A stretch of DNA of 64,000 nucleotides. Origin: an uncultured Pseudomonas sp. Its GTDB lineage: Bacteria; Pseudomonadota; Gammaproteobacteria; Pseudomonadales; Pseudomonadaceae. The notes beneath the pieces are model-generated. The model searched no databases. It had not been told where the DNA came from and worked only from the letters and a program-made list of their open reading frames with translations. Below, one piece after another: positions 206 through 8,197 of the stretch. Made by a program: the position numbers and the translations under genes. How positions within the stretch are numbered: position 1 is the stretch's first letter; every line of letters starts with the position of its first letter. The stretch is from positions 14,503-78,502 of the forward strand of contig CBIFVM010000020.1 of the NCBI GenBank assembly GCA_966186235.1. Reading direction: 5' to 3'.

Positions 206-1828
206 ATGAGCTTTGGTCGTTCGCTGCGTGCCCAATTGGTATTGCTGATTGGCGGTGGCCTGGTGTTGATGTTGCTGATCGCGTTGGCTGGCTTCGCGCT
301 GTTGTCGCGCCAGCTGGATGGCTACGGGGCGCTGCTCAGCGGCCCATTGGAAGAGGCGCGGCAAGTGGACGGCGCCAACCTGGCGTTCAAGATTCAGGTT
401 CAGGAATGGAAGAACGTGCTCCTGCGTGGCGGCGATGAAGCGCAGCGCAACCGCTACTGGCAGCAGTTCCAGGATGAAGAGAAGCGCGTGCAGACGCGGA
501 TCGGCCAACTGATCGACACGGCAGGGAGTGCCGAGCTGCGCCAGCGGTTGAGCGAACTGCGCGCTGCTCACGCCGAGATGGGCCAGGCCTATCGCCGTGG
601 TTACCAGGCTTTTGCCGCGGCAGGTTTTTCTGCCCAGGCCGGCGATGCGGCAGTGAAGGGCATCGATCGAGCCACCACCGAACAGCTGTCGTTGCTGGTC
701 GACGAACTGCACGCGCGCAGTCAGGCAAGCGCCAGCCAGTTGAGCGAGATCGCCCAGCGCAGCGTGCTGTTCGGCAGCCTGGCGATGCTCGCGATCGGCG
801 TGCTGCTGGCGCTGTTCAGCGCCTGGCTGGTCAACCGGCGCATTACCACGCCGTTGTTGCAGGCCACCGGGCAGCTCGAGCTGCTCAGCCGTGGGCAATT
901 CGGTGAGCGCCTGAGTGAGGGCCGTGAAGATGAAGTCGGCCTGCTGGCCCAGGCTGCCAATCGCCTGCGCGAATTCATGCAGGCGCTGTCGCAGCAGTTG
1001 CGTCGCGGCACCGGTGAGCTGGATGCCGCCACCCAGGAGCTGAGCAGCGTGGCTGGGCATATCGGCCAGGGTATTCGTGACCAGTTCTCCCGCACCGATC
1101 AGGTCGCCACGGCGATGCACGAGATGAGCGCCACCGCCGAAGAAGTGGCGCGCCATTCGGCCAGCGCGGCGCGGGCCACCGACGAGGCCGATCAGGCTGC
1201 CCAGGATGGTGAAACCACCATGGCCAGCACCATCGCTACCATCGAGAAGCTGCATGGGGAAATCACCCGCACCGCCGAGGTGATCGCTCGGCTCGACAAC
1301 GATAGCGAGCGCATCGGTGGCGTACTGGAAGTGATTCGTGGCATCGCCGACCAGACCAACCTGCTGGCCCTCAACGCGGCCATCGAGGCCGCGCGCGCTG
1401 GCGAGGCGGGCCGCGGCTTCGCGGTGGTGGCCGATGAAGTGCGCAACCTGTCGTCACGCACCGCCAGTTCGATCAGCGAGATTCACCAGTTAATCGCCAA
1501 CGTGCAGGGCGCCTCCAAGGAAGCCAGCGCTGCAATCGCTGCCGGGGCCCAGCAGAGTGCGGCCGGAAGAGCGAAGGTCGGGGTGGCCGGCGAGCGCCTG
1601 CATAGCATCACCCAGGCCGTGGAAGCCATCCGCGACATGAACCGGCAGATCGCCACAGCGGCGGAAGAACAGACCTCGGTGGCCGAAGACATCGCCCGCA
1701 ACCTGGCCGAAATCGTCTCCATCGCCCAGAGCAACGAAGCCGACTTGCAGCGCAGCGAGTCGGCGGGCCGAGCCATGCAGGGGCTGTCCGGCGAATTGTC
1801 GACGCTGGCGGCGCGGTTGAGAGCGTGA
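206..1828 (+). CDS. Methyl-accepting chemotaxis protein
   Basis: Two TM segments, HAMP region, signalling hairpin [36 protein letters not shown]. Confidence 0.95.
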
Positions 1829-1840
1829 TACCCGGCGGCC

Positions 1841-2473
1841 TCATGCCCTGAGCAGCATCACCAGCATGCCCACGGCCAGGGCGATCAGTACCAGGCCGGA
1901 AAGCCGTTCGAGCAGCGGCAGGGCGCGCTGGAAGTTGCGCAGCAGCCGGCCATTGCCGATGGCTAGGGCCACCAGCAGATCCCAGCCGAGCACCACGGCG
2001 AACATCCACACGCCATAGAACGCCTTCCAGCCGGCACTGATCTGGGCGCCCAGCATGCTCGCCAGGCTGACGTAGAACAGCGCGTTCTTGGGGTTGATAA
2101 TGCCGGACAGAAAACCCATGCCGGCCGCCTGCAGCCAGGAGGCCCGGCCGGCAGGCGCCGCCTCGCCCGGTGCCTGCAGCACGCTGCTGCCGGCATGGCG
2201 ATTGAACAGTACGCCCAGGTACAGCAGGTACAGGCAGCCGACCAGTTGCAGTGTGATGAACGGCGCGCTGCCAGGCTGCAGTACCGACACGCCGGTAAAG
2301 GCGGCGACGATGAACGCTCCGTTGGCCACGGCGATGCCCAGGCAGGCGCCACTGGCGACCCGCCAGCCCGCTGCCAGGGACGTGCGGGCGACCAGAAAGA
2401 AGTCCGGGCCGGGGGAAATCAGCGCCAGGAAGTGGGCGGCGGCAATGATCAGGAACTGCTGCATGGCGGGCAT
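1841..2473 (-). CDS. LysE/RhtB family amino-acid exporter
   Basis: HFLALISPGPDF N-terminal motif, GF..GIINPKNALF; 210 aa, hydrophobic. Start could be 2464. Confidence 0.9.
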   Translation of the reverse strand: MPAMQQFLIIAAAHFLALISPGPDFFLVARTSLAAGWRVASGACLGIAVANGAFIVAAFTGVSVLQPGSAPFITLQLVGCLYLLYLGVLFNRHAGSSVLQAPGEAAPAGRASWLQAAGMGFLSGIINPKNALFYVSLASMLGAQISAGWKAFYGVWMFAVVLGWDLLVALAIGNGRLLRNFQRALPLLERLSGLVLIALAVGMLVMLLRA

Positions 2474-2568: not shown

Positions 2569-3736
2569 TCAGGTCGTGTCTCGTTGACTTAGCGTGCGGC
2601 GTGACGCGCGCAACGCCGAAAGCGCGGCCAACACGAACAGGCTGGCTGCAAGGCACAGCGCGAGCGGCAGGCCGTGGGCGCTACCGCTCATCAGGGCACC
2701 GCTGAGCAATGGCCCGAGCAGGCTGCCGACGCCCCCACAGCATGCCAACGCTGGCGTTGGCGGTGATCAGGTCAGCGCCGTGAAAATCCTCGCCGATCAG
2801 GATCAGCGCCAGGGTGTAGACGCCGCCTGCCGCCGTGCCAAGCAGCACCAGGGTTGGCCACAGCAGGGGCGGGTAGGCGAGTAGCCAGGGCAGGGTGATG
2901 CCACATGCCAGGCTGAGTAATCCGCAAGCCAGGTGCAGGGCGCGACGGTCGAGCCGATCCGCGAGCCAGCCAAGCGGCACCTGAAACAGCATGTCGCCGG
3001 CCAGGATCACGCTGGCCATCAGCGCGGCGGTGGTGAGGGCAAAACCCTGGCTGCTGGCGTAAAGGGGAAACAGCGAGAGAATCACTGCATCGAAGAACGA
3101 AAAGAACAGCACCCCGATGCACAGCGCTGGCGCCACGCGGAAAAAGCCCAGCAGCGAAAAGCGCCGCTCGTGTCGTTCTTCGCCGCTCAACTCGCGGGGC
3201 AGTCGCTGCCAGATCAGCGCCACCGTCAGCAGGTTGGCCAGAGTCACGATCAGTACGATCCAGGCACCCTGGGTGCCCAGCAGGCCGATCAGCGCCGGCC
3301 CGCCCAGTTGGCAACCGGTAAAGCAGGCGGCATAGAGCGCGACGGTCTGGCCGCGCCGCTGCGGATCGCACAACTGGTTGACCCAGGACTCGCCGAGAAT
3401 CACCACCACGCCCATGGCCAGGCCCATCACCAGACGGCTGATGGCCAGTGCCGGCAGGTGGCTGCCCAGCCATTGCAGGCTGGCGGCGCTCACGGCGCAG
3501 AGCATGAAGCACGCCAGATAGAGCGTGCGGCCGCGGCAGTGGCGACACAGCAATGTGCTGAGCAGGGCCGCAAGGATCATCCCCACGGCCGGCATGGCGC
3601 TGATCACCCCAATGGCCAGTGAACCGGCACCCGATTCGTGCAGGCGCAGCGATACCAGAGGGAGCGTCGCTCCCATGCTCAAACCGACCACCGAGACCGC
3701 AGCGATCAGCAGCGCCAATACATGACGATTGTTCAT
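2569..3736 (-). pseudogene. MFS transporter (YcaD-like) with an apparent +1 frameshift near the 3' end (probable sequencing error)
   Basis: Start MNNRHVLALL with SD GGAGGT; 12-TM-like pattern. Removing one C from the C5 run at 2732-2736 restores ...LWGVGSLLGPLLSGALMS...ASLFVLAALSALR... to a stop at 2569. Confidence 0.85.
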
Positions 3737-3833
3737 TCTCGACCTCCGCCTGCCCCGGTGGCCAGGCGCGTATAAATACGAAGACGTGGCCACGCCCAGG
3801 GCGTGACGCCTGCAACAGAGGCAGCAACTGCCG

Positions 3834-3974
3834 TCAGGCAGCGGCGTGAGGCGAGAAGGTGAAGGCGAATAGCACCGCACGACGGCGGCGCAGAAGGGCA
3901 TCGCGCGGCCAGCCCAGCGCCGCCGGCGAAACACCGGTGCAGAGCGAGGCAGACGAATGGGCGATGGTTGGCAT
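3834..3974 (-). CDS. Candidate 46-aa leader peptide (uORF) of the MFS gene
   Basis: ATG at 3974 just downstream of a sigma70-like promoter; MPTIAHSSASLCTGVSPAALGWPRDALLRRRRAVLFAFTFSPHAAA; stop codon sits in a hairpin loop. Confidence 0.5.
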   Translation of the reverse strand: MPTIAHSSASLCTGVSPAALGWPRDALLRRRRAVLFAFTFSPHAAA

Positions 3975-4002
3975 GGTGGGCTCGGGAAGGTCGAGACGCT
4001 GG

Positions 4003-4031
4003 AGTGTGGCCAGATGCAACGAGGCCGTCAA
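4003..4031 (-). promoter_or_regulatory. sigma70-like promoter for the leader/MFS transcript
   Basis: On the minus strand TTGACG-17 bp-CACACT. Confidence 0.55.
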
Positions 4032-4096
4032 TCGGCAGCGCCTGCACTGCCGGTTACCAGGCCAGCCGCCTATTGGGCGGCCGACCTGGGCGTTCG

Positions 4097-6553
4097 CTAC
4101 CAGCGGAAGTTCACCGCGGTCACCAGTTGGCGCTCGTCGCCATAGGTGCAGGTGGCGAACTCGCAGTAGGTGTATCGCTTGTTGGTGAGGTTGTTGGCGT
4201 TGAGGCTGATGTCCCAGTTCGCGTCGAGCTGGTAGCTGACCATGGCATCGAACAGGGTGTAGGCAGGCATCGCCGAGTCCATTTCGGAGGCCTGGGTGGT
4301 GCCCTTGTAGCGGGCGCCGGCGCCGACGGTGAGCTGCGGCAGGTTGAGGCGCATGAAGTTGTAGTCCAGCCACAGCGCCGCCTGGTGATAGGGCGTGTCC
4401 TCGCTGCGTTGGCCGACTTCGCCGGCGATGTCGCTCTCGGTGATGCGCGCATCGATATAGGCGTAGGAGGCGATCAGGCTGAGGTCCTCTGTCACGTCCG
4501 CCTTGGCTTCCGCCTCGAAGCCGCGCGAGCGCACTTCGCCCGTCTGCGTGGCGATGTTGGTGGCAGGGTCCTGCTTGAGCACGTTCTGCTGGGTCAGCTC
4601 GAAAACCGCGGCACTGAGCAGCAGGTTGCGGCCATCGGGCTGGTAGCGAATCCCCGCTTCGTATTGCTTGCCTTCGGTAGGCACGAAGCTCTGCCCGCCG
4701 GCAACGGCCACCGACACCGGGAAGAACGATTCGCTGTAGCTCAGGTACGGCGCCAGGCCGTTATCGAGCTTGTACACCAGGCCGGCGCGGTAGGTGGTGG
4801 CCTCGTTGTCCTGGCTGGTGCGCACGCCGTTGCGATGCTGTTTCTGGTTCTGGTCGGCCCAGTCGTGGCGCACGCCGAGTACGGCGACCCAGCGATCGTC
4901 GATGTTGATCTGATCCTGCAGATAAACGCCTTTTTGCAGGGTGTCGATCTGTGAGCCGCGCTCCAGGCTGCGGTCCTTGTTCACCACCACCGGCTGCCCG
5001 TAGTTGTAGCGGCTCAGATCCAGCGCCGGCGCGACGCCGCGAAAGTTGTGCGAGTCGTAGCTCATGTCGTAGGCATCGAAGCCCAGCAGCACGCTGTGCT
5101 CCGCACCACCAAGCTGCCATTTCGACTCGATGTTGGTGTCGCTGGCCAGGCCGCGGGCGCGTTCGTGGCGGTCGCTGTACTGACGCTGCAGGATGCCCGT
5201 GGTGGCCGCCTGATTGATCACGGCGGCAGTCAGACCGTTACCGCCGGTACGCACCTGCAGGTACTTCCAGTCCACTTCGGTCTGGTAGTAACGCAGCTTG
5301 TGGTTGATGCGCAGCTGCTCGTTGAAGTGGTGCTCGAACTCGTAACCGAGCGTCGACATCTCGCCGTTCATCTCGTTGTAGTCGGGCTCGCCGATGAAGT
5401 CGTGGCGACCGATCTGGTACGCCGCGTCGCCCACGCCCTTGACCAGTTGGTAGGGCAGCGGCGCGGAGAAGCCCGTTTCGGTCTTCTGGTAGAACGACAA
5501 CAGGGTCAGGGAGGTGTCTTCGTTCGGGCGCCAGGTCAGTGCCGGGGCGATGTAGAGCCTGTCGTCGTCGATGTGATCCTGGGGTGTGCCGCTATCGCGC
5601 GTGAGCAGGGTCAGGCGGTAGCTCAGGGTATCGCTGTCACCGAGCGGGCCGCTGAAGTCGCCGGACAGCTGTTTGCGGTCGTTCTGGCCGACCTGCAGGT
5701 TGAGTTCGTGCAGCGGTTCGCGAGTCGGCCGCTTGCTCACCCCGTTGATCATGCCGCCTGGCGACAGCTGCCCGTAGAGCACCGAGGCCGCGCCGCGAAT
5801 CACCTCGACACGCTCCAGGCCATAGGGCTCCTGAATGCCGTCATAGGAATTGTTCTGCAGGCGCAGGCCATCGCGCAGCGAGCCGCCGGTGGCGGACTCG
5901 ACATCGAGACCACGGATCCGAAAACGGTCCGCCGTGCGGTTGAAACTGGTCGGCTGGCTGGTGACGCCCGGTGTGTAGCTGAGTGCCTGGGAGAGAGTCT
6001 CCGACTGGCGATTGCGCAGCTCGTCGCGGGTGACCACCGAGATCGATTGCGGCGTATCGACCAGGGCGGTATCGGTCTTGGTAGCGCTGCTGTTGCGCAG
6101 GGCCACGTATCCGGCCAGCGGCTCACCCGGCAGCTCGGCATTGCCGTCGGCGATGCCGGATACGGTGGTGCTGTCCAGCTCCAGCGCGCCGCTGGCCGGC
6201 AGCGGGCGCAGTACATAACCGCCGCCGCCTTGATCGACTGCCTCCAGCCCGGAGTTCTGCAGCACCAGGGCAAGCCCGGCGGTGACCGAGTAGTTGCCGT
6301 TCAGGCCGGGGCTGGTCTTGCCGCTGGCCAGGTCGTTGTGGCCGGCGAGGTAGATACCGGCCTGGGCGGAAAACTGGTTGAGCACGCTGTTCAGCGGCCC
6401 TGGCGCGATGCTGTAGGTGCGCACCGCCTGGCTTTCCTGCGCGGTGGCCGGCAGGGCGATCAGCAGAGGCGGGGCGAGGGACAGCGCCATGGGCAACGCC
6501 AGGGCGAGTGGTCGCAGGGAGAAGTGGAAAGCGTGCGCGGCTGGCAAGTGCAT
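4097..6553 (-). CDS. TonB-dependent siderophore receptor/transducer with N-terminal signalling (STN) domain
   Basis: Signal peptide, STN-like segment (YSIAPGPLNSVLNQFSAQAG), plug motif ERVEVIRGAASVLYG, C-terminal aromatic W; 818 aa; FhuA/FoxA-like. Confidence 0.93.
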   Translation of the reverse strand: MHLPAAHAFHFSLRPLALALPMALSLAPPLLIALPATAQESQAVRTYSIAPGPLNSVLNQFSAQAGIYLAGHNDLASGKTSPGLNGNYSVTAGLALVLQNSGLEAVDQGGGGYVLRPLPASGALELDSTTVSGIADGNAELPGEPLAGYVALRNSSATKTDTALVDTPQSISVVTRDELRNRQSETLSQALSYTPGVTSQPTSFNRTADRFRIRGLDVESATGGSLRDGLRLQNNSYDGIQEPYGLERVEVIRGAASVLYGQLSPGGMINGVSKRPTREPLHELNLQVGQNDRKQLSGDFSGPLGDSDTLSYRLTLLTRDSGTPQDHIDDDRLYIAPALTWRPNEDTSLTLLSFYQKTETGFSAPLPYQLVKGVGDAAYQIGRHDFIGEPDYNEMNGEMSTLGYEFEHHFNEQLRINHKLRYYQTEVDWKYLQVRTGGNGLTAAVINQAATTGILQRQYSDRHERARGLASDTNIESKWQLGGAEHSVLLGFDAYDMSYDSHNFRGVAPALDLSRYNYGQPVVVNKDRSLERGSQIDTLQKGVYLQDQINIDDRWVAVLGVRHDWADQNQKQHRNGVRTSQDNEATTYRAGLVYKLDNGLAPYLSYSESFFPVSVAVAGGQSFVPTEGKQYEAGIRYQPDGRNLLLSAAVFELTQQNVLKQDPATNIATQTGEVRSRGFEAEAKADVTEDLSLIASYAYIDARITESDIAGEVGQRSEDTPYHQAALWLDYNFMRLNLPQLTVGAGARYKGTTQASEMDSAMPAYTLFDAMVSYQLDANWDISLNANNLTNKRYTYCEFATCTYGDERQLVTAVNFRW

Positions 6554-6644
6554 GGTGGTCCCAGGAGTGGTCTGATCGGTTGGCTTCTCAGGGATTACCG
6601 AGCCAGATCTGCAAAAGGGAACCGCGCCGATGAATTAATTTCGT

Positions 6645-7634
6645 TCAGGCCTCGCTCGGCTCGACGGTTACCCACCAGTCGGTCAGCCGCTGCACGCGAA
6701 TGGGCAGGGCGGCCTGCAGCAGGCGCAGGCTTTGCTCGCTGTCGTCCAGCGGGAAATAGCCCATCACCGGCAGGTTGGCGACCGCCGGGTTGCAGCCCAG
6801 GTGGCCGCGGCGAAATTGACCCAACTCGTCGAGCAACTGGCCCAGCGGCATGCCTTCGGCAGCCAGCACATGACGCGTCCATGATTCGCGGGCGCCGGCT
6901 GCGGCTTGCACGGCGCCAATCTGCGCAGTGTCGAAGGTGACTTGCTGGCCAGCGGGGATGCGCAGGGTTTGCTGGTTGCCTGCGGTACGGATTTCCACCG
7001 TGCCGTCGAATACCGTCAGCCAGGTTTGCGTATCGCTCTGGCGCACGCTGAAGCGCGTGCCCAACGCCTGCATGCGCCCGTGCCGGCTGGTGATGAAGAA
7101 GGGCCGGGTATCGCGGGCGGTGTCGATCAGCACTTCGCCAACGCGCAGGTGCAGCAGGCGCACGGCGTCGTCGAAGTCGGCGTCCACCGCGCTGCCGGCG
7201 TTGAGCCACAGGCGAGTGCCGTCGGCCAGGCGGGTTTCGCGCACCTCGCCGATGCCGGTGGCGAAGTCGGCGCTCCAGCCGGCGACCAGGCGCGGCAGTG
7301 CCGTGTGGCGCCAGGCGCTCCACGCCACCAGGCTACCAGCGCCGACGATCAACAGGCTCTTCAAACCCTCGCGCCGGGTCAGGCCGGAGCGGCCAGGCTG
7401 GGCCAGGGCGCGGCGCAGCGTCTGTCCGTCGTCCTGCTGCTGCAACTGGCCGAAACGCTGGCTGACGCGCTCGACATAGTGCCAGGCGTCGCGGTGTTCG
7501 CCGTGTTGCTCCAGCCACCGCTGCCATTGCTGGCGCACCTGGCCATCGGCCTGCTCGTCGTGCAGGCGCACGTACCAGTCGGCGGCCTGCTGCAGGCTGG
7601 CGTGGCTTAGGGTGTGGGGGCGCGGGTTGATCAT
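6645..7634 (-). CDS. FecR-family anti-sigma/transmembrane sensor
   Basis: QQAADWYVRL N-terminus, TGIGEVRETRLADGTRLWLNAGSA, ALGTRFSV; ATG overlaps the sigma-factor stop (ATGA). Confidence 0.92.
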   Translation of the reverse strand: MINPRPHTLSHASLQQAADWYVRLHDEQADGQVRQQWQRWLEQHGEHRDAWHYVERVSQRFGQLQQQDDGQTLRRALAQPGRSGLTRREGLKSLLIVGAGSLVAWSAWRHTALPRLVAGWSADFATGIGEVRETRLADGTRLWLNAGSAVDADFDDAVRLLHLRVGEVLIDTARDTRPFFITSRHGRMQALGTRFSVRQSDTQTWLTVFDGTVEIRTAGNQQTLRIPAGQQVTFDTAQIGAVQAAAGARESWTRHVLAAEGMPLGQLLDELGQFRRGHLGCNPAVANLPVMGYFPLDDSEQSLRLLQAALPIRVQRLTDWWVTVEPSEA

Positions 7635-8155
7635 TCGACCAGCAGACCGTCGAGTTCGGCTTCGAGCAGGGCGCAGTGCAGCAGCGCCTGGGCCAGGTAT
7701 TTCTTGACCATGCGCTCGGACACGCCGAGCTGCGTGGCGATCTCGCGATAGGGCAGGCCGTCGAGCTGGGCGAGCAGAAACGCCTGGCGCACCCGCGCGG
7801 GCAGGCGCAGCAGCATGGCGTCCACTTCGTGCAGGGTTTCGATGATCAGCGCGGCCTGCTCCGGCGACGGCTGCAGCGCTTCCGGGCGGCTGGCCTGGGC
7901 ACTCAACCAGGCGTGTTCCAGCTGTTTGCGGCGCCAATGATCGATGCTCAGGCCGCGGGCGATGGTCGCCAGGTACGAGCGTTCGCCACTGTGGCTGTCG
8001 AAGCGCCGCGGGCGCAGCAGCAGGCGCACAAAGGTGTCCTGCACCAGGTCGGCGGCATCGGCACTGTTGCCCAGGCGACGGCGCAGGAACTGCTGCAGCC
8101 AGCCGCGATGGCTGGCGTACAGCTGGTGCAGGGCGGAGGTATCGGAAGGCGTCAT
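7631..8155 (-). CDS. FecI-type ECF sigma-70 factor
   Basis: LY..H.GWL..FLRRRLG...DAADLVQDTFVRL; region 4 GLPYREIATQLGVSERMVKKY. Confidence 0.93.
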   Translation of the reverse strand: MTPSDTSALHQLYASHRGWLQQFLRRRLGNSADAADLVQDTFVRLLLRPRRFDSHSGERSYLATIARGLSIDHWRRKQLEHAWLSAQASRPEALQPSPEQAALIIETLHEVDAMLLRLPARVRQAFLLAQLDGLPYREIATQLGVSERMVKKYLAQALLHCALLEAELDGLLVE

Positions 8156-8197
8156 CGAGAGCACGTACCCGAAGGCGTTTGCGCGCCTCAATGCAGA

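Follow-up and report, generated by a model that had tools for sequence, protein, structure and literature searches.

On the minus strand of a 64,000-nt stretch of DNA from an uncultured Pseudomonas sp. (the whole of which is called the window here), a gene for a YcaD-like transporter of the major facilitator superfamily (MFS; 2681-3736 when read to its first stop codon, with the ATG at 3736-3734) is preceded by a small open reading frame (ORF) of 46 codons plus TGA (3834-3974; ATG at 3974, TGA at 3836-3834), whose translation is MPTIAHSSASLCTGVSPAALGWPRDALLRRRRAVLFAFTFSPHAAA. A preliminary description of this DNA had proposed that the ORF is a leader controlling the MFS gene and had assigned it the promoter TTGACG-17-CACACT. 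Re-reading the minus strand recovered the same ORF, and the promoter hexamers lie where they had been placed, at 4026-4031 (-35, TTGACG) and 4003-4008 (-10, CACACT), 17 nt apart and with a predicted transcript start near 3996. As described below, the ORF is a genuine, genus-wide leader peptide, and its sequence suggests that it most likely represents a new ribosome-arrest family that controls YcaD-like MFS transporters.

We retrieved 80 loci from contigs of one genome per species, using the MFS protein as the sole query. The closest came from Phytopseudomonas straminea, with 97% identity in the MFS protein, and the rest were from Pseudomonas-type species with 55-80% identity. A tBLASTn search with the 46-residue peptide, suggested in the preliminary description together with a comparison of codon-level conservation, found a match just upstream of the MFS gene in 80/80 loci, and the codon-level comparison likewise bore the leader out. 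At each locus an ATG opened a frame of 44-47 codons that nearly always ended in UGA, and the ORF, its frame, ATG, stop codon and C-terminal motif were kept in 81/81 genome loci despite differing flanking genes. The conserved motif spans 22 residues (codons 22-43; 3846-3911) and reads [W/R][P/K]xDxxL[K/R]RRR[S/A/G]VLFAFTFSP[H/P] across loci. Within it, the core RRR[S/A]VLFAFTFSP (RRRSVLFAFTFSP in the window) was invariant as protein, all 13 residues being fixed, including S, V, L, A, T and P. The first Arg of the run was replaced by Lys, Asn or Leu in many lineages.

Nucleotide variation in RRRSVLFAFTFSP fell almost entirely at third codon positions, and the synonymous changes in the core included a switch between serine codon families (AGC to TCC). 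The proportions of synonymous (pS) and nonsynonymous (pN) differences, obtained as Nei-Gojobori estimates from 80 unique sequences, were 0.39 and 0.018 for the core (codons 30-42), with a pN/pS of 0.047. The ratio rose to 0.55 in codons 22-29 and to 0.93, nearly neutral, in codons 2-21. The C-terminal half of the leader is under strong purifying selection at the protein level. This codon-level selection argues that the ORF is translated and that the sequence of its peptide matters, and it excludes both a chance ORF and an element that acts purely at the RNA level. Amino-acid rather than nucleotide conservation ahead of the presumed arrest point, with a free upstream part, is a hallmark of arrest peptides that this leader shares.

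The first 21 codons (3912-3974) varied in sequence and were invariant in length, with no indels or stop codons in the 80 unique sequences. In all 81 genome loci the Trp/Arg22 codon stood exactly 21 codons from the ATG, with zero indels, and the stretch from the ATG to Pro42 measured 42 codons. We looked for conserved RNA structure in the 5' untranslated region and the N-terminal coding part that might explain this fixed length, and found none there; only a weak helix of seven pairs was seen around codons 20-33, which showed no consistent compensation. The leader N-terminus is not hydrophobic, and no stretch of the peptide is hydrophobic enough to span a membrane. At the other end, position 43 was only His or Pro (40:40), where conservation stopped abruptly, and it was followed by a tail of 1-5 unconstrained codons. 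The N-terminal 21 codons are thus saturated with substitutions and free of indels, whereas the lengths of the tail and of the spacer between leader and MFS gene (67-135 nt across loci; about 100 nt, and structured, in the window) are free.

The leader was also found independently of the MFS query. A degenerate DNA pattern for RR.VLFAFTFSP, run against metagenome contigs, gave 106 hits, and all those with at least a few hundred bases of downstream DNA, except for one (L135), preceded the same MFS family (47-97% identity). Some of these hits had shorter N-terminal parts, such as MSPS...DCAINRRRRSVLFAFTFSPH, and belonged to the P. chlororaphis/P. piscis group, where the leaders are 11 codons shorter. 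Overall the leader was present in the straminea, alcaligenes, nitroreducens, putida and chlororaphis groups, as well as in P. otitidis and P. mendocina. Flanking genes varied among clades and no regulator gene travelled with the module; the gene neighbourhood was likewise uninformative as a clue to the substrate, as the neighbours differed between clades. Because the neighbouring genes are not conserved, the promoter, leader ORF, spacer and MFS gene are a self-contained regulatory module. One metagenome contig (L091) carried two divergent leader-MFS modules in opposite orientation (2995-3029 on its minus strand and 7061-7095 on its plus strand), their leaders ending ...FSPPAFSC and ...FSPPVHAR.

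The 3' end of the leader ORF is complementary to the ribosome-binding site (RBS) of the MFS gene. The segment from codon 39 to the stop (CUUCUCGCCUCACGCCGCUGCCUG; 3835-3862) forms a predicted duplex with the ribosome-binding region GGGGCAGGCGGAGGUCGAGAAUG (3732-3756), which contains the Shine-Dalgarno (SD) sequence GGAGG at 3747-3743 and the start codon. In the window the pairing joins CUUCUCGCCUC...GCUGCCUG (3858-3835) to GGGGCAGGCGGAGGUCGAGAAU (3756-3735). The duplex was calculated at -30 to -32 kcal/mol (-32.4 at best), better than any other segment sampled from about 5 kb of the locus. It is the closing helix of the minimum-energy fold and covers both the SD and the AUG. The 135 nt from codon 39 to the MFS start folded at -66.1 kcal/mol (z = -4.2), and 0/200 shuffled sequences were as good. 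In 23 representative loci from across the clades, the minimum-energy folds had the last codons of the leader paired with the MFS RBS, and the complementarity was present in the loci tested and strong in about half of them. The native leader-RBS duplexes had a mean energy of -20.9 kcal/mol, compared with -17.9 kcal/mol for permuted partners, and 0/5000 permutations were as low.

Natural variation within the putida-clade alignment was too small for a covariation analysis, and covariation was taken instead from cross-lineage mini-alignments. The wobble base of Ser41 was G where the RBS contains CGAGAA and U where it contains AGAGAA (19/28 unique combinations), and in the putida group CCAAGC/GCUUGG alternated with CCUUGC/GCAAGG. 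In the putida-group register 82% of cells were paired, compared with 29-52% in slid registers, and the covariation score was 0.117 against 0.078, with 0/500 shuffles as high. The predicted probability that the SD is unpaired averaged 0.21 over 79 loci (0.11 in the window). Modelling a ribosome footprint with Pro42 in the P site raised the mean to 0.36 (p about 7e-7), whereas a footprint at the stop codon gave 0.27 and one at codon 30 gave 0.21, that is, no opening. The model thus predicts that the MFS SD is sequestered by a segment that a ribosome stalled on the leader would cover.

The promoter assigned in the window belongs to a conserved sigma-70-like element, TTGAC[G/C]-N17/18-TAGA[G/C]T, in which about 28-33 nt separate the end of the -10 hexamer from the leader ATG. 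TTGAC[G/C] was conserved at the equivalent place elsewhere, and the relatives carry TAGACT or TAGAGT at -10. A simple consensus promoter scan missed the promoter in the window because CACACT, which matches TATAAT at 3/6 positions, is a weak version of the conserved -10 hexamer.

No RNA run was found for the organism of the window, and RNA evidence came from low-depth assembled contigs of a dozen public runs that cover a putida-type locus, L031. The 3' part of the leader ORF, the spacer and the 5' end of the MFS gene were on the same RNA molecules in at least five of these runs, showing that leader and transporter gene are co-transcribed in this related species. In 11 of the 12 runs there was no transcript over the interval from the promoter to about 30 nt upstream of it, and short matches further upstream (3631-3692 of that locus) were flanked by unrelated sequence. 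The contigs had their 5' ends at 3719-3760, around the promoter and within about 10-30 nt of the -10-equivalent element, two of them beginning 8-14 nt upstream of the predicted start. Their 3' ends were scattered, and neither the start nor an attenuated 3' end can be mapped from data this sparse. Two large raw-read runs contained zero reads on the locus.

Taken together, these observations lead us to propose, with a probability of roughly 60%, that nascent-peptide arrest of the ribosome near Pro42 uncovers the SD of the MFS gene and so switches the transporter on. The module would consist of a sigma-70 promoter, a translated 46-codon leader, a structured spacer and the MFS gene, and the leader would encode a nascent-peptide arrest motif, ...D..L[KR]RRR[S/A]VLFAFTFSP[H/P], whose 22 conserved residues would occupy the exit tunnel of the ribosome once Pro42 was in the P site. 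At rest, ribosomes would complete the leader and leave, codons from about 39 to the stop would pair with the SD and start of the MFS gene, and the transporter would remain untranslated. A signal, which might be a small molecule in the tunnel or in the peptidyl-transferase centre, an antibiotic or a defect in translation, would then cause a ribosome to stall at Pro42/codon 43, where it would cover the anti-SD segment, free the MFS RBS and allow the transporter to be made. Ribosomes stalled and queued on the C-rich leader may additionally block premature termination of transcription.

What we infer from these patterns is that the ribosome stalls, where it does so, that a signal is required and in which direction the MFS gene is regulated. 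The conservation that ends at codon 43, the free tail beyond it and the opening of the SD by a footprint at Pro42 together point to an elongation arrest at Pro42/codon 43, and we therefore place the putative arrest point, from the conservation boundary, at the codons for Pro42 (P site) and His43 (A site), 3846-3851. Because every residue of RRRSVLFAFTFSP is fixed, and not just the Arg and Phe residues, the motif resembles a nascent-chain arrest motif rather than a set of starvation codons.

Several observations weigh against this proposal. The core of the anti-SD helix is invariant and hence uninformative, many of its peripheral cells lack pairing, and the covariation is moderate and clusters by phylogeny; moreover, the CU-rich codons for TFSP would pair with any purine-rich RBS. 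In the window, masking the leader end barely freed the SD in the thermodynamic model (0.11 before, 0.17 after), since another CU-rich segment, CUGCCUC (3824-3818), is also able to pair with the SD. No SD was recognisable before the leader ATG. The leader was absent before the MFS orthologues of P. coronafaciens, of the syringae group (L192), and of Pseudomonas sp. F-14 TE3623 (L193); in both, the MFS gene directly follows a gene of 920-975 aa with a class-I lysyl-tRNA synthetase-like domain (PF01921) and an aldehyde-dehydrogenase domain, a neighbour whose predicted domains may hint that the transporter handles an amino-acid-derived compound. Two further features point towards transcription. 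The leader ORF and the first half of the spacer are rich in C and poor in G (C 0.40-0.44, G 0.25-0.29, C/G 1.4-1.8), compared with C 0.32, G 0.33 and C/G 0.98 at the start of the MFS coding region, an excess that is compatible with a Rho utilisation (rut) site. In many clades, a GC-rich hairpin and a U-rich tract lie 35-60 nt before the MFS start.

These last two features make a Rho- or terminator-based output a serious alternative or an additional layer: the same leader peptide could act mainly on transcription, with stalled or stacked ribosomes on the C-rich leader keeping Rho from loading or disrupting an intrinsic terminator in the spacer, as happens with tnaC or speFL, and with SD pairing secondary. 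One putida-type RNA contig, which runs from the promoter and ends at the U tract, agrees with this, as do the 29/81 loci, the window included (3797-3772), that passed a strict scan for intrinsic terminators. Most loci nevertheless failed the strict criteria, the terminator-like sites lie at varying distances from the stall site, the central hairpin would be out of reach of a ribosome at Pro42, and several RNA contigs continue into the MFS gene; contigs of such low depth cannot quantify termination. As the main output, we consider transcriptional control somewhat unlikely. It is also conceivable, but we think improbable, that the ORF codes for a small protein (44-47 aa) that works in trans, either as a partner or regulator of the MFS transporter or in the manner of peTrpL, and that its upstream position merely reflects an operon. 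Strong selection on the protein, strict co-occurrence with the MFS gene, a fixed total length and its annotation by gene callers as a hypothetical protein would all fit such a role. However, half of this protein evolves nearly neutrally, its conserved part is a linear 22-residue motif that ends at Pro-[His/Pro] and is followed by a free tail, and it has no membrane-spanning stretch; its coding 3' end also doubles as a covarying anti-SD segment, and the gap of 67-135 nt is structured, unlike a normal operon junction.

The preliminary description had counted an amino acid among the possible signals, and a further explanation is classical attenuation, in which pausing at the Arg (RRRR) or Phe (F.F.F) codons, for want of charged tRNA, selects between hairpins, as in pheL, trpL and hisL. 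The three to four consecutive Arg codons, the three Phe within five codons, a resemblance to E. coli PheL (...FFFAFFFTFP) and the mutually exclusive hairpins of the window all speak for it, but the fixation of all 13 core residues, S, V, L, A, T and P among them, does not fit the sensing of codon runs in the style of trpL or pheL. In addition, the first Arg is replaced in many lineages, the codons are common ones that vary synonymously, the regulated gene is an MFS gene in varying genomic contexts, the hairpin pair of the window is not conserved and a terminator is not general, so that we regard such an attenuator as highly doubtful. Finally, long spurious ORFs are frequent in GC-rich genomes, and an ATG that lacks a preceding SD could suggest chance hairpins and a chance frame in GC-rich intergenic DNA, or a non-coding RNA with an accidental frame. 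All 81 loci and about 100 metagenome contigs nevertheless keep the frame, ATG and stop codon, third positions hold most of the variation, and no Rfam family matched; this explanation is refuted by the codon-level conservation and is scarcely credible.

Regarding RNA structure, each of the hairpins in the preliminary description is present in the window. The uORF UGA lies in the loop of GCUGCC-UGAC-GGCAGU (3827-3842), which forms in the minimum-energy fold, and the alternative hairpin GGCAG-UUG-CUGCC (3820-3832) has an arm, CUGCCUC, that can also pair with GAGGUCG at the SD. A stem of CGCCUG (3768-3763) and CAGGCG (3752-3747), spanning 3747-3768, abuts GGAGG. Stop-proximal hairpins of differing sequence recurred in other clades, and analogous stems (GCCCGG/CCGGGC and others) lie just 5' of the SD there. 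The mutually exclusive pair as such, in contrast, was specific to the lineage of the window (also P. straminea, L001), so that a role for it as the conserved switch is not supported; nor is a particular importance of the UGA lying in a hairpin loop, the tail after Pro42 ranging from 1 to 5 codons. The earlier interpretation was right in outline and is partly supported: selection suggests that the leader is translated, and its 3' end covaries with the MFS RBS, in keeping with leader control of the transporter, while codon-run sensing and the hairpin pair were not upheld.

An intrinsic terminator was considered as a general mechanism and not adopted, because only 29/81 loci passed the strict scan. 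The corresponding site in the window is weak and terminator-like, a stem at 3797-3782 with the U-rich tail UCGUAUUUAU (3772-3797 in all). The U-rich tract recurs in other loci, but often apart from the stem.

The MFS start codon is backed by 19 aligned orthologues, all of which begin at the equivalent Met. The gene of the window is frameshifted after about codon 334, giving 351 aa compared with 383-388 aa in orthologues; relative to P. straminea, one extra G in a GGGG run (2732-2736, minus strand) causes the frameshift, and the C-terminal 59 aa continue in another frame (2748-2569). As two related DNA runs (X1 and X5) lack the extra G, the frameshift is either a strain-specific pseudogene or an assembly error. 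A search of PDB sequences with a full-length MFS orthologue found no match at E up to 0.001, and no homology to CmlA or FloR was detected at the curated cut-off.

On the downstream side of the MFS gene lie a LysE/RhtB-family exporter (1841-2473, minus strand) and a CtpM-like methyl-accepting chemotaxis protein (206-1828, plus strand). A putida-group genome (L081) also has a LysE gene near the module, but on the opposite side. Upstream, and also on the minus strand, are genes for an extracytoplasmic function (ECF) sigma factor (8191-7631), a FecR-type (FecR/DUF4880) anti-sigma factor (about 7610-6645) and a FhuA/FoxA-like TonB-dependent siderophore receptor/transducer with an N-terminal STN signalling domain (6553-4097), which together form a complete cell-surface signalling set at 4097-8191. 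Since the siderophore receptor lies upstream of the leader-MFS module only in the two closest loci (L001 and L002), this set is probably unrelated to the leader. The gap between receptor and MFS gene is 360 nt and contains the leader. Directly past the receptor stop codon, at 4050-4090 on the minus strand, there is a strong GC-rich inverted repeat, CCAGGTCGGCCGCC-CAATA-GGCGGCTGGCCTGG, with no U tract, which may be a terminator or an element like a repetitive extragenic palindrome (REP) that insulates the leader promoter.

The preliminary description had recognised no described system, and our searches agree with it. The peptide had no hits in Pfam and NCBIfam, Rfam gave nothing relevant for region 3000-5000 at E up to 10, and libraries of 5.8 billion and 1.8 billion proteins (the latter comprising representative proteins and searched exhaustively with HMMER) returned only unnamed small proteins of the same Pseudomonas family. 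Literature searches on the motif string, on leader peptides with MFS genes in Pseudomonas and on conserved upstream ORFs found no description, the motif string occurring in none of 8.3 million papers. A few databases list the peptide as an unnamed hypothetical protein, which is also how gene callers annotate it; current annotation thus either misses the leader or leaves it unnamed. No description of the leader was thus found in the literature and databases searched, and, as it lacks homology to described arrest peptides, it would be a new family if it is an arrest peptide.

To our knowledge, few bacterial regulatory arrest peptides have been described, and each well-studied example has revealed a way in which a nascent chain, together with the ribosome, can detect a molecule or a force. 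The invariant core of the present candidate is unusually long, with 13 of the 22 residues of the motif, and the candidate is genus-wide and tied to one transporter family. It is possible, and we suggest only tentatively, that this leader is the founding member of a Pseudomonas-wide family of ligand-sensing arrest peptides. In that case RRRSVLFAFTFSP, the exit tunnel and the peptidyl-transferase centre would together recognise a specific small molecule and stall the ribosome at Pro42, and the ligand could be a substrate of the MFS pump, for example a phenicol-like natural antibiotic that binds the peptidyl-transferase centre, or a metabolite. The identity of the trigger would give the function of the transporter, possibly an inducible efflux pump, as well as a new tunnel-ligand pair relevant to antibiotic research and a compact inducible switch for Pseudomonas engineering.

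The proposed arrangement has parallels in several known systems. In ermC/ErmCL, cat86 and cmlA, the last of which encodes an MFS pump, stalling of a ribosome on the leader rearranges the helices, and the hidden SD of a resistance gene becomes accessible. The window likewise contains four mutually complementary segments (GCUGCC, GGCAG, CUGCC and GGGGCAGG-GGAGG), like the 1-2-3-4 scheme of ermC. However, the leaders of ermC, cat86 and cmlA have 8-19 codons and few critical residues, whereas this one has 46 codons and at least 13 invariant residues. In SecM, VemP and MifM a conserved arrest motif of 15-20 C-terminal residues finishes at or beside Pro, a few free codons precede the stop, and stalling unfolds a helix that hides a downstream SD. 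Here too, the motif finishes at or beside Pro and is followed by unconstrained codons. SecM, VemP and MifM use an N-terminal signal or transmembrane segment to monitor secretion or membrane insertion, and they regulate secA, secDF2 and yidC2, respectively; unlike them, the leader described here has no hydrophobic N-terminus and adjoins an MFS gene.

Among Pseudomonas leader peptides, PA5471.1, the leader of armZ in P. aeruginosa, uses ribosome stalling to couple translation stress to the expression of MexXY efflux. It has about 13 codons and acts by transcription attenuation of an anti-repressor gene, and it shares no sequence similarity with the leader described here. The F-A-F-x-T-F-P-like string of PheL, the leader of pheA, is superficially similar. 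PheL works through the density of its Phe codons; here, in contrast, the residues other than Phe are equally invariant and the downstream gene is not part of a Phe pathway. The +x+ pattern is sensitive to macrolides, and KRRR or RRRR contains it.

For chloramphenicol, a penultimate Ala, Thr or Ser in the nascent chain favours stalling (10.1101/2021.06.17.448903), and A-F-T-F-S-P brings Ala, Thr and Ser in turn to this position, at three successive even steps. The most extensive parallel is with SpeFL, the leader of speF-potE in Enterobacteria, which, like the leader described here, is a short ORF that comes first on the mRNA and has an Arg cluster before a Phe-rich C-terminal segment (F.F.FF in SpeFL, F.F.F here), and in both the hairpin includes the 3' end of the ORF, the leader is C-rich and the downstream operon contains a transporter (10.1101/604074). 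SpeFL stalls at its own stop codon and acts through Rho (10.1101/604074). The two have no detectable sequence homology and differ in their Arg-to-Phe spacing, and here, unlike in SpeFL, the conserved part finishes 2-6 codons short of the stop and the end of the leader pairs with the SD downstream of it. The SpeFL-like Arg/F.F.F layout, the macrolide-sensitive +x+ pattern and the chloramphenicol context may each serve as a lead to the trigger, although none of them explains the invariance of 13 residues. If the ligand-sensing reading is true, the leader would be a sensor free of both protein and riboswitch, comparable to TnaC and SpeFL.

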